The position numbers and the translations under genes are program-made. Shown here piece after piece: positions 10,948 through 22,802 of a stretch of 64,000 bases of DNA (positions are counted from its first letter, which is position 1; each line of letters opens with the position of its first letter). Source of the DNA: a phage; NCBI GenBank assembly GCA_014161675.1, contig GCA_014161675.1_4760.1. One strand, given 5' to 3'. The notes beneath the pieces are model-generated. The model searched no databases, was not told where the DNA came from, and saw only the letters and a program-made list of their open reading frames with translations.

Positions 10948-12746
10948 AACAATTAATTAATATCGGTAACGTTGTTGATGACGGTACAGGTGATTATCTA
11001 AGAAAAGGCGGTCAAAAGATTAATGACAACTTTTCTGAACTTTATACTAAGCTGGGGGATGGTGATATCCCTCATGCATCCGGCGCGTGGAAAACTCACA
11101 CACAACCAGTATTAAAACCAAATTTTGGTGATGCATGGGCGATTAATACAACGAACAACGCTGTTTCTGTTGAATTGCCTAAAGGAAGCGCGAGTGATTA
11201 TAATAAAACAATTAAACTTCGTGATGTTTGGCGCTCATGGGCTGCACATAACGTAACGTTGAAGCCAGCACAAGGTGATACCATTAAGGGATCTCCAATC
11301 GACCGTGAGTTGTATAAAGATTTCATGGATGTTGAATTGGTTTATTGTGCGCCCGGACGTTGGGAATATGTCGAAAATAAACGAGTAGATACTATCACCA
11401 CTTCCGATTTAAGCACAGTCGCTAAGGAAGTTTATATTGCAACCGAAGGACAAACAGACTTCCCTAATGTGTTTGGTTCCAATACTTACAATATTCGAAA
11501 TGTTGAAGTGTATTATCGCGGTAACTTGCTTTATTATGGCAAGGATTTAACCGATGATTCTAACTATGGTTCAATCGGTGAAAACGGTGATATTGTTCCT
11601 CTGGACGGTAAAAGCATTAAATTACGCTTCCCTTGTTCGGCGGGTGATACCATTCAAATCATCACTTATATGGACGGTATCGCATCCTTCCGGTCAAGCT
11701 ATATTACTCATACAATCCGCGTTTATGAAACAGGAATGACCACTTTTGAATCCATCCCTGGTGAAGTTTGGGTCGGTGAACTTGCTAATAAGAAAGAGTT
11801 TACTAATGCTGAATTAGGCGTAAGTAAGCGAGATCTTATTAATCCAAATTCATTTGAATTGCTGATCAACGGCACACAAATGATTAAAGCGGGTGATGCG
11901 GATTTACCTTCCTTTATTTGTGAAGGTGCTGACGGTGAAACGGAAGAAACCTGCGTACTTGCTGGCGGTCAATGGGTGGAATCTGGTGAAGATTATTCAT
12001 TAATGTTTGACGAAAACAGCGTGGTGACTGGTATTAAATTATCTAAAGCACTAGATAACAGAGACACTATCACAATTCGCTGGTTTAATAATGATATCGG
12101 AACATTAATGGAATGGGACGGTGTAGGCGGTATTAAAGAAAAAGCAGATAAAATCTATCTTAATAACGAAGATGAAGTTACTCTGACAAATCGAATTGAA
12201 TATACCGATTTCCAGAATCCAAGCCAAGCAACTAAACGCCCAATGGAAGATTATACAGGTCGTGTGATGGATATATATTCCATCTTTGATATTTTCCATC
12301 CTATAGGCACAATTTATGAAAACGCGCATAACCCAGCTAACCCGGCGACATATATGGGAATTGGTACATGGGTACGTTATGCGGAAGGAGAATTTCTGGC
12401 TGGTTGGTCTTCTGACGCAAGCGATCAAAACTTCGCACTAAACAACAACGATCTTGATACACATGGTCAACCTACACACACCGCAGGTGGTAACGGTGGT
12501 GATGTTGCATACCAGATCAAGAAAAATATGATTCCTGAATTACAGAGCAACGATCGAGTTCTTGTAAAAGATGATAACGGAAATATTATTATCGGTGGTT
12601 GTCAGGTAGACCCTGATGCAGTAGGTCCAGCGTTTACCAAATATCGAGAAGATAATGTTAAGGTTAATCAGGGAAATACCGATCCATCAATGATGGGTAT
12701 TCTTCCTCCATACAGAACTGTCTATCGTTGGCTAAGGGTAGGTTAA
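10944..12746 (+). CDS. 10: gp10 baseplate wedge protein
   Basis: 600 aa; N-terminus 'MKQLINIGNVVDDGTGDYLRKGGQKINDNF' closely matches remembered T4 gp10. Confidence 0.85.
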   Translation: MKQLINIGNVVDDGTGDYLRKGGQKINDNFSELYTKLGDGDIPHASGAWKTHTQPVLKPNFGDAWAINTTNNAVSVELPKGSASDYNKTIKLRDVWRSWAAHNVTLKPAQGDTIKGSPIDRELYKDFMDVELVYCAPGRWEYVENKRVDTITTSDLSTVAKEVYIATEGQTDFPNVFGSNTYNIRNVEVYYRGNLLYYGKDLTDDSNYGSIGENGDIVPLDGKSIKLRFPCSAGDTIQIITYMDGIASFRSSYITHTIRVYETGMTTFESIPGEVWVGELANKKEFTNAELGVSKRDLINPNSFELLINGTQMIKAGDADLPSFICEGADGETEETCVLAGGQWVESGEDYSLMFDENSVVTGIKLSKALDNRDTITIRWFNNDIGTLMEWDGVGGIKEKADKIYLNNEDEVTLTNRIEYTDFQNPSQATKRPMEDYTGRVMDIYSIFDIFHPIGTIYENAHNPANPATYMGIGTWVRYAEGEFLAGWSSDASDQNFALNNNDLDTHGQPTHTAGGNGGDVAYQIKKNMIPELQSNDRVLVKDDNGNIIIGGCQVDPDAVGPAFTKYREDNVKVNQGNTDPSMMGILPPYRTVYRWLRVG

Positions 12747-12747
12747 T

Positions 12748-13392
12748 ATGATTTCTAAAACACGTTCAAAAGCTAGTGTATTTTCCAGCGATGCGGCGTT
12801 TATTTCATACGATCCAGGATCGAAAGATCCTGTTATCGGTGGTTCTCGTCCAATTGGTGGCGTTAATGTCGATCAATCAAGAAAAGGTTCCTATGTAAAC
12901 AACGTTCAATCTGCAATTGATGACCTTTATTCATTGTCAATGATCCGAATTGGTGATGTGTTGGTTACAACCGACTCAACTCCACCACAAGCCGCAGGAC
13001 AGATTGAAACTCTGTCATTTTCTGGTTCTGTTAACAATCAGCATAATCCAGACGCAAACAAAGTATTAATTGATGTTTTGGGTTATCCATTTATTGTTGA
13101 TGTTGGGTCTTCCGGCGTTTCTCTATGTGAGAAAGTAACGGAAAAATTTACCGAACTAATGAATAAAAACATTATGTTCAAAGAAGTAAAAAGAAAAGGA
13201 AGTAGCAACGACCAATTAGAAATTCATTATATCGATTCTCTTGAACACCCACCAACCGATATTAACAAGTACGGAATTACAATCACAGGAAATGTTGATT
13301 CTCCTGCTCGTGTTGGTTATGGTTCATGGTCTCGAATGGGTACAGAAGAGAAATTTGGAACTACCCTATATTATTTCAAACGTATTGCATAA
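12748..13392 (+). CDS. 11: gp11 baseplate wedge / short tail fiber attachment protein
   Basis: 214 aa; C-terminus 'TTLYYFKRIA' resembles T4 gp11; synteny. Confidence 0.8.
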   Translation: MISKTRSKASVFSSDAAFISYDPGSKDPVIGGSRPIGGVNVDQSRKGSYVNNVQSAIDDLYSLSMIRIGDVLVTTDSTPPQAAGQIETLSFSGSVNNQHNPDANKVLIDVLGYPFIVDVGSSGVSLCEKVTEKFTELMNKNIMFKEVKRKGSSNDQLEIHYIDSLEHPPTDINKYGITITGNVDSPARVGYGSWSRMGTEEKFGTTLYYFKRIA

Positions 13393-13403
13393 GGTGATGT
13401 ATA

Positions 13404-14804
13404 ATGGCAAACAATACTATTAACCATGTAAAAGACGATGCTCAATACGTCAAGTTTAACCCTGTAAATGATTGGCCTCAAAGCATTACCAACGTACAAG
13501 CGGCTTTAGCCGCTATTAATGGCTTTGCCGTAAATGGATTACCGGACGCTACGGAAGATACAGCCGGGATCGCTGCAATCGCAACTCAGGAAGAAGTAAA
13601 CGACGGCACTGTAGACAATAAGATCGTGACTCCAAAAACACTAGCTGTTAAAATGTCACGTCCAGATGCTACAAAAGAAGTAAAAGGCATTACCCGATTT
13701 GCCACGATGGAAGAATCGCTGCAAGAGAGCAACGAGAACATGGCAATCGGTCCAGACACACTAAACCATTACTTCACCACTAAAAAGGCGTCAGAGAGCG
13801 TTCAGGGGACTATTAAGATATGTTCTCTTGAGGCGGCAAAGATTGGCAGTGATGACACAATGGCAGTAACACCGAAAAAGATGCACACTGCCATTGCACA
13901 GATTGTGCCGGGATTAATTCCAGATCAAAACACAGCAACCGAAAGCGCACAGGGTTTAGTTCAGTTAGCAACTAATGCGCAGGTTTTACAAGGCCAGATT
14001 CGAGAAGGTTTTGCAATTAGCCCTTATGCATTTGCAAATGCTCGCGCCAATGAGAATCAGGCGGGTACTGTTAAGATCGCCAGCCAGTCACAGATGAATG
14101 CTGGTTCAGATGATACTGTAGTTGTTTCTGCTAAGAAGTTTGCAAGCACTAAGGCAACAACGTCTCAATACGGCATTGTTAAACTACGAGACACCGTAGG
14201 AAGTGAGGCTAACGCTGCACTATCAGCAAATGCTAAGGTTCTTCCTAGCACTGGCGGTACGGTAAGCGGAAACGTCTATAAAGGTTCAAACTCAGACGGC
14301 AACCAGTTTGTTACTAAAAATGAATTAGCGAATCACGCAATGCCAATTGGTGGTATTATCCTTTCTGGATTCAATGCCGATCGAGGTGACTTTCTGATCT
14401 GTAATGGTCGTTCACTGAATAAAAATCAATATCCGCAATTATTTTCTGCGATTGGTTATACCTTTGGTGGTTCAGGTGACAATTTTAATCTTCCTGATAT
14501 GCGCGGTTTAGTTGCTCGTGGTTGCGATCATGGAAGAAACCTTGATCCAGGTCGTCGATTTGGTTCTTATCAAGAAGACGCAATGCAGAGAATTACTGGT
14601 AAATTCCCTGTAGCTGACCGCTGGCGCGGTTGGTATGGTGGCGCATTTACTGCACAGCGCGGTCAATGGAGCACGAACTATAAAAACGGTGGTGGTGATG
14701 ATTGGGGTTCTACTGTTAACTTTGATTCAGGAAGATCCGTAAGAACGGCTAACGAGACTCGCGTCAAGAGTCTGGCATTAAACTATATCATAAGGGTGCG
14801 CTAA
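13404..14804 (+). CDS. 12: gp12 short tail fiber
   Basis: 466 aa; C-terminal 'LPDMRGLVARG' and 'LNYIIRVR' resemble T4 gp12. Confidence 0.8.
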   Translation: MANNTINHVKDDAQYVKFNPVNDWPQSITNVQAALAAINGFAVNGLPDATEDTAGIAAIATQEEVNDGTVDNKIVTPKTLAVKMSRPDATKEVKGITRFATMEESLQESNENMAIGPDTLNHYFTTKKASESVQGTIKICSLEAAKIGSDDTMAVTPKKMHTAIAQIVPGLIPDQNTATESAQGLVQLATNAQVLQGQIREGFAISPYAFANARANENQAGTVKIASQSQMNAGSDDTVVVSAKKFASTKATTSQYGIVKLRDTVGSEANAALSANAKVLPSTGGTVSGNVYKGSNSDGNQFVTKNELANHAMPIGGIILSGFNADRGDFLICNGRSLNKNQYPQLFSAIGYTFGGSGDNFNLPDMRGLVARGCDHGRNLDPGRRFGSYQEDAMQRITGKFPVADRWRGWYGGAFTAQRGQWSTNYKNGGGDDWGSTVNFDSGRSVRTANETRVKSLALNYIIRVR

Positions 14805-16573
14805 TGATTGAACAATTAAACATCCACGAGATCCCACATGTTGACGGTGTACCAAGCGAAGGACAGCACCGTATTAACTGGATCAAGAATGGCGAATGTT
14901 TAAGCGCAGCAACGACACAGACTGGCAATGACGGGACGCTTAACCGCGCCCCGGTTGCAATTCAAGAAAACGTTGCACGCGTAAACGAAAACGCAAAATC
15001 AACCGTCGCTAAAGTTAACGAGGTTGTAACGGCGGTTAACGATATTAAAACAACTTTAGGGGTAATTTCTGACGGAAGTATCATTGATGTGGTTAACCAG
15101 ACTGTCGCAAAAGTTGAATCCGTCGAAGATAACTTAGGAGAAACAGCAAGAACTCTACAAACAACGGTAGACGCTGTATCAGAACTTAACATCAAGATTG
15201 GTGATCGCCCCGCTGCCGATCCTAGCACAAGAACAATCTATGATGACATTTCTTTCATCAAACAAGAAATGGGTTCTTATCCTAACTTTAATATCAATGG
15301 TTCCCCTGATGCTGGCAGTTCCGGTTCTGGCATCAAATACCGAGTTATTCAGAATACCGCAGCATTAAATGACCACGGTCGCCGAATCATTCAGCTTGAA
15401 AACGACTGGCAAGATTCTGACGTCGGCGAGTTAACAAAACAAGTTAACAAAATGCGCAGTGAGATCGGCGACACGTCTCTTGCAACACAAGAAAATGTGT
15501 ATGTTCGTCTCCGCACCAACGCAAGAAACATTGCTAACTTATCAAACGAAGTTCTAGAAGTCAAGAAAGCAATTTTGTTTGATTCAATCCCTGATATCGG
15601 GACTAAAGTCACTACGCTGGGAACTAATTATGAACGTCTAAACAATGATGTTAATGGTGTAGATTCCGGTATTCGTCCTCGTCTTCTGGCTGTCGAGAAT
15701 AAGATCGGAACGCCTCAATCGGCTGGAAGCATTGACTATCGATTAACCAACACAGAGCGAGAATTTTTAGATCTTAAACAGGTTGTTGGTGTAAGCGGTG
15801 CTGACGGTTTGCGCGGTGAAGTTGTTCGACTTTCCAATGAGATTGGCACTGACAGCGATCGACATACTCTAGCCGGACGTATTAAAGTTGTAGAAAACAC
15901 TCAGGGTCGGTTAGAAGCAAGCGTACAGGACATGGAACAGATTGTAGGTGATCGCGAATCAGGTTTGACCGCTGGCGTTATTAAACTATCAAGTGATATC
16001 TATGGCGATGATGGTTCAGAAGATCCATTTACTCAGAAAGGCGTGATTAAAATCGTCAAAGAGCTACAAACATCTAACGGAAACAAAGTAGATGATGTAC
16101 CTGATGACGGTTTCCATTATCTGCGTAAGCGCGGAGAATGGGTGCAAGTTGCATATGCTGCTGGAGCATTTAAAAATACCGCAGATATTACGGTTGAGCT
16201 GGACGAACAGGATGTTTATAAACCGATTCCGCTTAACGACATGGCGGAAGAAGTTAATGCGCGTCAAATGGTGAAAAGTGAATCTGTTATTACCGTTCAG
16301 GACAAAGGTTTATTCCGTTGTGTATTCCGTTGTGATGTACAAGCTCAACATAATGCAACATTCATTGTTGCGATTTTCAAAAATGGACAGATGGTACATG
16401 AAGCGAAAAATGGTCATTACGGAACAGACGAATTGATCAGCTATTCTACCAGTGCTTTCCTAAATATTGAAACGGGAGATCAGATTAACATCCGTATTAA
16501 GGGTGTATCTGCCGAAGCAGTAGCACAGCCAGTACAAATTAAAGAGTTCCTCTTTGGGATTTCTCCGGTATAA
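14804..16573 (+). CDS. wac: fibritin (wac) with C-terminal extension beyond the foldon
   Basis: N-terminus 'HEIPHVDGVPSEGQHRINWIKNGE' matches T4 wac; foldon-like 'DGFHYLRKRGEWVQV' at about 16105-16150; about 140 further residues follow. Confidence 0.8.
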   Translation: MIEQLNIHEIPHVDGVPSEGQHRINWIKNGECLSAATTQTGNDGTLNRAPVAIQENVARVNENAKSTVAKVNEVVTAVNDIKTTLGVISDGSIIDVVNQTVAKVESVEDNLGETARTLQTTVDAVSELNIKIGDRPAADPSTRTIYDDISFIKQEMGSYPNFNINGSPDAGSSGSGIKYRVIQNTAALNDHGRRIIQLENDWQDSDVGELTKQVNKMRSEIGDTSLATQENVYVRLRTNARNIANLSNEVLEVKKAILFDSIPDIGTKVTTLGTNYERLNNDVNGVDSGIRPRLLAVENKIGTPQSAGSIDYRLTNTEREFLDLKQVVGVSGADGLRGEVVRLSNEIGTDSDRHTLAGRIKVVENTQGRLEASVQDMEQIVGDRESGLTAGVIKLSSDIYGDDGSEDPFTQKGVIKIVKELQTSNGNKVDDVPDDGFHYLRKRGEWVQVAYAAGAFKNTADITVELDEQDVYKPIPLNDMAEEVNARQMVKSESVITVQDKGLFRCVFRCDVQAQHNATFIVAIFKNGQMVHEAKNGHYGTDELISYSTSAFLNIETGDQINIRIKGVSAEAVAQPVQIKEFLFGISPV

Positions 16574-16582
16574 GAAATTAAA

Positions 16583-16602
16583 GGGGCGTTAAGCCCCTTT
16601 TT
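16583..16602 (+). terminator. Rho-independent terminator after wac
   Basis: GGGGC-gttaa-GCCCC hairpin plus TTTTT. Confidence 0.55.
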
Positions 16603-16619
16603 CGTTTATAGGTGATATT

Positions 16620-17552
16620 ATGTCAGGATATGTAACCAATAACCCAAGAGAATTAAAAGACGCTATTCTGCGTCGTTTAGGCGCACCAGTAATTAACGTA
16701 GAAGTAACAGAAGACCAGATTTACGATTGTATTCAGAGAGCATTAGAACTCTATGGGGAATATCATTTCGATGGTGTGAATAAAGGATATAAAGTATTTC
16801 GTGTTAGTGCCGAGCAAGCGCAACACGGGGTATTTGATTTAAGCGATTCTGGAGTATTCGCAGTAACTAAAATAATTCGAACAAACGTAGGTAGCGCGGC
16901 TACGATGGATGGTACTGCCGTTTATCCGTGGTTTACTGACTTTCTGTTGGGTTTAGCTGGTGTAAATGGCGGTTTAGGATCTGGCTGTAGTAAATTTTAT
17001 GGTCCAAATGCAATGGGTGGTGATCTAGGATATTTCGAACAGCTTATGAGCTATCGAGCCACTATGCAAAATATGCTCAATCCGCTGCCAGATTATTGGT
17101 ATAACAGCGCAAACGGACAACTTAAGATAACAGGAAACTTCCGAGAAGGTGATCTCATTGTTGTTGAATTATATGTTAAAAGCTATGTAGACGTTCCTGA
17201 TATGATCGGCGCGGTTGCTGGTTATGCTCATGCTGGAGGATGTTCTACCGCTGGAGGGATTAGCGCCGTTTATGATAATCCAACTGCTGGTTTAAGCGGG
17301 ATTGTTGCTGGCATGGGACCGATCAGTGAGAACAAGCAGGGCGCATATAATAACCGTTGGGTTAAAGACATGGCAACCGCTTTCACTAAGGAGGTGTGGG
17401 GGTCTATCATGGCTAAACATCAAGGTCTGCAATTACCCGGCGGTGTCACTGTTGATGGTATCCGAATCATTGAAGAAGCACGCGCCGACATTGAGAAATT
17501 GCGACAAGAACTAGAATTATTAGATCCTCCGTTCGGCATCCTCATGATTTGA
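16620..17552 (+). CDS. 13: gp13 neck protein
   Basis: 310 aa (T4 309); synteny wac-13-14-15. Confidence 0.8.
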
Positions 17553-17588
17553 TTTATTGGGGGAGTATTCCCCCATTTGGAGTAACAT

Positions 17589-18329
17589 ATGTTTAACAAC
17601 ACTCTTTTTGCTCGCCTTGAATCGCAAAAGGATTATGAGAATACACGACAAACAGAGATTCTTAATCCTTATGTGAACTTTCACAAATATACAAATACTC
17701 AGACGTTAGCCGACGTTATGGTCGCCGAAGCTATTCAGATGCGAGGTGTAGAATTATATTACATCCCTCGTGAATTTGTCAAACCAGATATGATCTTTGG
17801 TGAGGATGTTCAAAGCAAATTTACTAAAGCATGGAAATTTGCGGCGTATATTAACTCATTTGATGGGTATGAAGGAGCGGGTAATTTCTTCTCTAGTTTC
17901 GGGTATCAAGCTAATGATGAATTAACTTTTACGGTTAACCCCAACCTATTCAAACATCAAGTAGATGATCAAGAGCCAAAATCAGGTGACTTAATTTATA
18001 TTCCGATGAGTAATGATTTATTTGAAATTAATTACGTTGAGCCATATCAGCCGTTTTTTCAGGCTGGCAAAAATGCCATGCGTAAAATTATTGCAGAGAA
18101 ATTCGTGTATAGCGGTGAGGAATTGCGACCAGAATTACAACGCAATGAGGGAATTAATGTTGATGAGTTTGCGGATCTGGATCTTGCACCGATCACTAAT
18201 CTGGACGGGTTAACAGATATCAACCTAGATCAGTACAAAGAAGATAAGCAATTCAGAAGCGAAGGACAAGATTTTATTGATCCGTTTGATCCTATTAATG
18301 GCAAGGGTTCACCTTTCGCCGATTTTTGA
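17589..18329 (+). CDS. 14: gp14 neck protein
   Basis: 246 aa; synteny. Confidence 0.75.

Positions 18330-19202: not shown

Positions 19203-22802
<3,600 letters not shown>

Follow-up and report, generated by a model that had tools for sequence, protein, structure and literature searches.

The C-terminus of the RB49-type fibritin was reportedly described by Letarov and colleagues in 2005, and its expanded C-terminal part is said to have been found necessary for trimerisation. In their later account, the RB49 type figures as one of about eight alternative forms of the fibritin C-terminus, and only the fibritins of T4 and JS98 are listed as trimerising with the small foldon alone (Letarov & Krisch, 2013; PMC3797505). 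RB49 fibritin, which like fibritins in general is trimeric, and the fibritins of others are stated to need further sequences of an expanded C-terminal domain for trimer folding, and the modular swapping of the C-terminal domain is held to have ceased (PMC3797505). Published accounts call the RB49-type C-terminus “alien” or “unrelated to T4” and give no fold for it, and a full-text literature search found no paper that names the fold. The extension itself is already published; since no fold-naming paper was found, the assignment of a fold to it appears to be a new, if straightforward, annotation.

The window analysed here, a stretch of 64,000 nucleotides, is part of the genome of a Krischvirus (RB49-like, Straboviridae) phage of E. 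coli. The features on which the following account draws are these:

14804..16573, plus strand: wac, encoding fibritin (neck whisker), 589 codons and a stop (1770 nt); from the ORF list, nucleotide identity, PHROG 1056 and 2bsg_A
14819..16084, plus strand: aa 6-427, the N-terminal region for attachment to the neck and the segmented coiled-coil shaft, homologous to residues 5-432 of T4 fibritin; from phmmer against the PDB
16106..16150, plus strand: foldon-like beta-hairpin DGFHYLRKRGEWVQV (aa 435-449); from its position, alignment to the foldon chains 2lp7/1rfo, Pfam Fibritin_C and predicted strands
16157..16570, plus strand: C-terminal 138-aa globular domain (aa 452-589), a predicted C1q/TNF/BclA-like jelly roll and putative whisker-tip knob
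16198..16532, plus strand: jelly-roll core, a cassette exchanged between Krischvirus lineages; from sliding identity, the list of differences and dS
16580..16606, plus strand: terminator-like hairpin AAAGGGGCGTTAAGCCCCTTT followed by a T run, 7 nt past the wac stop; from a pattern scan and the sequence

The start of wac overlaps the stop of gp12 (TAATG), and the gene is flanked by gp12 (13404..14804, short tail fibre, with a Collar domain) and gp13 (16620..17552, neck protein); this gp12-wac-gp13 order, seen among the ORFs of the window and in the annotated JSE and ECD7 loci, is the position of a fibritin gene. At the nucleotide level wac is 99.7% identical to the wac genes of kaaroe and kvi and 98.8% identical to that of RB49. 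For the 589-aa product, the match to PHROG 1056 “fibritin neck whisker” has an E-value of 2e-186, and its residues 6-427 can be aligned with the 487-aa T4 fibritin (2bsg_A; E 5.8e-50, phmmer against the PDB), placing it in the fibritin/Wac family by an N-terminal neck-binding region and a coiled-coil shaft that are homologous to those of T4 gpwac. The terminator-like hairpin between wac and gp13, itself at 16580-16600, is a strong one (GGGGC-GTTAA-GCCCC and a T run).

Downstream of this locus, the large terminase gene gp17 is interrupted (window 19697-22802). An ORF at 19697..21442 covers positions 5-106 of the Terminase_6N profile and continues into a TnsA-like/endonuclease-I-like nuclease domain, and an ORF in a different frame (21423..22802) covers Terminase_6N positions 107-213 together with Terminase_6C. 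The gene is uninterrupted in JSE, where its product has 608 aa, and carries a different insertion at this place in ECD7; the insertion of the window is present in about 7 of 60 Krischvirus records. An Rfam search of the interrupted gp17 matched no intron, and the insertion is probably a mobile homing-endonuclease element. A homing endonuclease gene separates gp14 from gp15 in JSE, and segC lies between gp13 and gp14 in ECD7 (L001 8214-8969; L002 7463-8047); the window is without both genes (sites 17552-17589 and 18326-18329). The identity of the window to ECD7 falls to 76% at 17657-17956, adjoining the segC site, as is expected of co-conversion tracts.

The sequence-only reading of this DNA had proposed that the fibritin carries an extra C-terminal stretch of about 140 residues after a foldon-like motif, and each element of this proposal is borne out. 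The ORF translation gives a product of 589 aa against the 487 of T4 and contains every peptide that had been quoted, the motif is found at aa 435-449, and the residues past it are aa 450-589, or nt 16151-16570, the very coordinates that had been claimed, with 138 residues following the end of the Fibritin_C match. That match (PF07921) extends over aa 368-451 with 105.5 bits against a cut-off of 21 (E 1.6e-30) and runs up to position 92 of the 93 in the model, so that a Fibritin_C region complete with its foldon motif also marks the protein as a fibritin. The motif DGFHYLRKRGEWVQV can be aligned with the T4 foldon sequence PRDGQAYVRKDGEWVLL (chains 2lp7/1rfo), with the hairpin residues Y, R, K, G, E, W and V retained, the flanks altered and the C-terminal “STFL” of T4 exchanged for a linker into the next domain. 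The T4 foldon, for which fibritin is chiefly known, is a 27-residue C-terminal unit sufficient for trimerisation, whereas the motif here is internal, 138-140 residues from the end. A T4-type fibritin would end at the foldon; the window fibritin goes on for 138 residues.

It had also been suggested that wac C-termini be compared among related phages, and in this comparison the extension is of full length in all 58 matching phage genomes, while the full-length homologs (n = 15, 53-99% identity) are all of 587-589 aa. Given this uniformity, and dN/dS ratios below 1, the extension is not an artefact of assembly or of a frameshift. A tblastn search of the domain against 50,697 phage records returned exactly 58 matching records, all from RB49-like phages of E. 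coli or Shigella and all with the match within wac. Among 1.84 billion representative proteins, phmmer found three matches, namely two fibritins and P0025, the latter a tandem-repeat junk ORF that was rejected as a relative of the domain. Word-indexed searches with the domain and with its profile yielded two 110-aa fragments only, a search of IMG/VR yielded three Krischvirus-like loci, and searches of PDB sequences with the domain or profile yielded foldon constructs and noise only. As judged from these sequence searches, the domain appears to be confined to fibritins, those of the 58 Krischvirus genomes and of a few metagenomic relatives. The metagenomic fibritins P0016-P0019 (67-41% identity) possess the same tail, and for the tail of P0019 the wac genes of the 58 Krischvirus records are the sole matches (about 29% identity). 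P0020 (30% identity) is encoded between a gp12-like gene and gp13 on a T4-like contig, and its tail is weakly collinear with the domain profile (hhalign E 0.0013). P0023 and P0024 occupy the same gp12-gp13 position; their tails have no significant relation to the domain, and Pfam finds nothing in these tails.

Structure prediction was performed as a single chain on aa 429-589 aligned with 14 homologous tails from the full-length search, and the resulting model (mean pLDDT 89.8, pTM 0.82) is all-beta, with the two short strands of the foldon hairpin at model residues 11-14 and 17-20 followed by about ten strands. Nearly all of the best 50 structural matches are heads of the C1q, TNF-ligand or BclA type, or heads with this fold from the fibres of phages and bacteria, a picture that is repeated by Foldseek, and the phage heads among them include those of the cyanophage A4 and A-1(L) tail fibres, PRD1 P5, TM4 gp23 and the lactococcal 1358 RBP. 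In BFVD, hundreds of phage proteins have similar heads, often on collagen-like stalks. The predicted structure is the compact jelly-roll beta sandwich of about 130-140 residues that characterises the C1q/TNF-like superfamily (ECOD 10.3.1; PF00386, PF18573). By sequence profile the domain falls short of the curated threshold for this superfamily, as Pfam BclA_C (PF18573) reaches 22.7 bits against a cut-off of 38 and C1q (PF00386) 15.5 bits against 23.7; among the homologs, BclA_C and C1q match at E <= 0.1 in 9 and 8 of 15, respectively, with a best E-value of 4e-7 and a best homolog score of 30.4 bits (BclA_C). Because both families score below their cut-offs, membership rests on the predicted structure. 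The likeness to C1q/TNF jelly rolls that the sequence-only reading had drawn is therefore upheld as to fold, as a predicted structure, but not by the scores for the fold families, and the C-terminal domain can confidently be predicted to have a C1q/TNF/BclA jelly-roll fold. The best viral structural matches to the model of foldon plus knob are BFVD A0A1J0MHA5 (Klebsiella phage KPV15, 159 aa) and A0A7S9SPP9 (594 aa), with E-values of 1e-10 and 2e-12 and 24% identity, the KPV15 protein being a free-standing 159-aa ORF similar in size to the modelled fragment. Relatives of KPV15 have been reported to possess Ig-domain fibritins.

Domains of the C1q/TNF fold are usually homotrimers about a three-fold axis, with both termini at the base, at the C-terminal end of trimeric fibres, which they nucleate and bring into register, as do the NC1 domains of collagens VIII and X, C1q and BclA. 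On the strength of the predicted fold, of this behaviour of the fold on trimeric fibres and of the folding requirement reported for RB49, a model is proposed, and considered probable, in which the RB49-type C-terminal module is a C1q/TNF/BclA-fold domain that caps the distal end of the trimeric whisker and acts as its trimeric folding nucleus. According to this model, three C-terminal domains would associate after synthesis and set the register, whereupon the coiled coil would zip towards the N-terminus; the domain would most likely have taken over the job of trimer nucleation from the foldon, of which the hairpin alone remains. In the virion the knob would form the exposed tip of the whisker, and it would therefore be the only candidate surface for whatever the tip touches. 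A purely folding role leaves unexplained that the core has been swapped as a cassette and that the dN/dS of the domain is twice that of the shaft, and were the knob only a folding cap, its recognition would amount to a modest structural annotation of a known protein.

The jelly-roll core exists as two main alleles, 31 records being at least 95% identical to the window at the nucleotide level and 27 being 77-79% identical. Between the window and ECD7 there are 73 differences in 16198-16532, whereas the 1394 nt of wac that precede this stretch differ at 6 places. Judged from the amino-acid pattern, the 5' junction falls between aa 474 and 481 (nt ~16225-16244), inside the domain, and ECD7 is of the JSE type over aa 478-577, where dS between JSE and ECD7 is 0.015. 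Because ECD7 is almost identical to JSE in the core though window-like upstream of it, the knob core was moved recently between lineages, as represented by the ECD7-like phages; the chimeric (ECD7-type) arrangement occurs in nine records and the reverse arrangement in none. On a larger scale, the C-terminal part of gp10, gp11, gp12 and wac (~11357-16456) form one diverged block between the window and JSE, with 65-80% nucleotide identity and flanks at 95-99%, and the window and ECD7 agree at 99-100% identity through gp10-gp12 and in wac as far as about nt 16197, with the knob core as the exception. For the window and JSE, dN/dS is 0.19 in the domain and 0.09 in the shaft, ratios by which the domain is under purifying selection, somewhat looser than that on the shaft. 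Variation in the domain is concentrated at aa 459-495; no change is seen in its D-E turn (NG), and its least variable parts also include the E-F loop (NGHYGTDE) and strands F and H, the strand labels being our own assignment from the DSSP string; a contrast in conservation between the putative inner and outer sheets is a trend only (p = 0.07).

An alternate scenario, which is compatible with a role in folding and is regarded as possible if somewhat less than evenly so, is that the knob is selected for docking the long tail fibres of its own phage, close to the gp36/gp37 knee, in keeping with the role of the whisker tip in T4-like phages in fibre assembly and in holding the fibres retracted when conditions are unfavourable. 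In favour of such docking, Letarov and colleagues (2005) are said to have described a novel gp36 C-terminus as well in those genera whose Wac C-terminus is novel. In T4, the C-terminal part of fibritin and the fibre meet just below the knee (PMC3797505), and for this reason the pairing of knob alleles with tail-fibre genes was examined. Within Krischvirus, the allele of the C-terminal domain is indeed associated with that of the gp36 end and gp37 start (28:3 against 10:17), and both knob alleles could see the same fibre surface, since gp34, gp35 and most of gp36 (496 aa in RB49) are 95-99% identical among RB49, ECD7 and JSE. However, this association is confounded by clade structure, and 13 of the 58 genomes, for example those of kvi, ECD7 and JK32, have the “wrong” combination of alleles. 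In addition, a gp37 segment that is of the JSE type in ECD7 is distributed among the genomes independently of the knob allele (12 against 8 records), and this segment shared by ECD7 and JSE was rejected as a partner of the knob, as it occurs with both alleles. Strict pairing of the knob allele with long-tail-fibre genes was not found among the 58 genomes, a result that neither proves nor excludes that the knob docks on a fibre surface which is conserved. Mosaicism is high in the long-tail-fibre genes of Krischvirus: 100% identity to the RB49 gp37 segment (L003 37240-37833) is confined to the RB49 records, other records having 70-86%, and the JSE-type version of the segment is common to 20 phages of both wac types.

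It is further conceivable, though unlikely, that the knob is an accessory adhesin or lectin for a host glycan (LPS, O-antigen or capsule) that serves reversible pre-adsorption or environmental sensing, in line with the sensor or carbohydrate-binding module proposed in the sequence-only reading, an idea kept alive by the cassette exchange and by the many phage receptor-binding heads of the same fold. However, only two main alleles exist in 58 phages whose gp37/gp38 adhesins are highly mosaic, and selection on the domain is purifying overall (0.19), with no hypervariable loops; both the small number of alleles and the purifying selection speak against a determinant of host range like gp37/gp38. 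The E-F loop NGHYGTDE, moreover, is among the less variable loops, and neither the domain nor its homologs match a carbohydrate-binding family in Pfam. A bolder version, more doubtful still, would make the knob a second binding head, a C1q/TNF-like lectin by which the six whiskers touch a host-surface glycan ahead of the long tail fibres or at the same time as these, with the two alleles representing two ligand specificities; if true, the collar whiskers of a T4-like phage would take part in host recognition, beyond the handling of fibres. An additional binding head would bear on the prediction of host range and on the engineering of phages, given that RB49-like phages infect a broad range of hosts and that O-antigens can serve as their receptors (PMC9569957). 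Finally, the extension might be an intramolecular chaperone and be removed by cleavage once folding is complete, as happens in some tail spikes and in the gp37 of T2-like phages. Such a role would accord with the reported need of the extension for folding (PMC3797505), but it is highly improbable and was rejected, as no Peptidase_S74/IMC family is matched and the predicted TNF-like jelly roll is not the IMC fold.

Placed among known systems, the domain here taken as a probable trimeric cap and folding nucleus belongs to what is practically the RB49 protein itself (RB49 Wac, AAP04366.2), with 98.8% nucleotide identity over wac, 97.8% amino-acid identity over the C-terminal domain and the same length and gene position; where the published account holds that modular swapping has ceased (PMC3797505), two alleles of this domain are seen to have been exchanged recently within the genus. 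The BclA C-terminal domain of the Bacillus anthracis exosporium (PF18573) and ExsFA/BxpB are only 12-15% identical to the knob, with Pfam scores of 22.7-30.4 bits below the cut-off of 38, and BclA has a collagen-like stalk where the window fibritin has a coiled coil. The gC1q domains (Caprin-2, C1QL1/3, cerebellin, collagen VIII/X NC1) and TNF ligands (EDA-A1, TWEAK, TL1A) are 9-19% identical, and these animal proteins are most unlikely to be direct relatives of the knob. The TNF-like receptor-binding heads of phages (A4, A-1(L), PRD1 P5, TM4 gp23, 1358 RBP) share the predicted fold and, like the knob, are located distally on a trimeric fibre; they differ in that no sequence similarity to the knob is detectable, and in that they are borne on tail or vertex fibres that contact the host, whereas the knob is borne on the neck whisker, which in T4 touches the phage's own fibres. 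With the T4 foldon (fibritin residues 457-483), the window fibritin shares the hairpin core, kept at the corresponding place, but the RB49-type motif has lost part of its N-terminal segment as well as the STFL turn at its C-terminal side, and it is internal and reported to be insufficient for trimerisation, whereas the T4 foldon ends the protein and suffices (PMC3797505). Naming the fold makes an “alien sequence of unknown origin” testable, as a trimer, as a nucleus of the coiled coil in the way that NC1 and BclA heads are for collagen, and for the binding of fibres or glycans. In the RB49-type fibritin, the minimal trimerisation unit of T4 thus appears to have been replaced by a full C1q/TNF-like head, with a remnant of the foldon kept.
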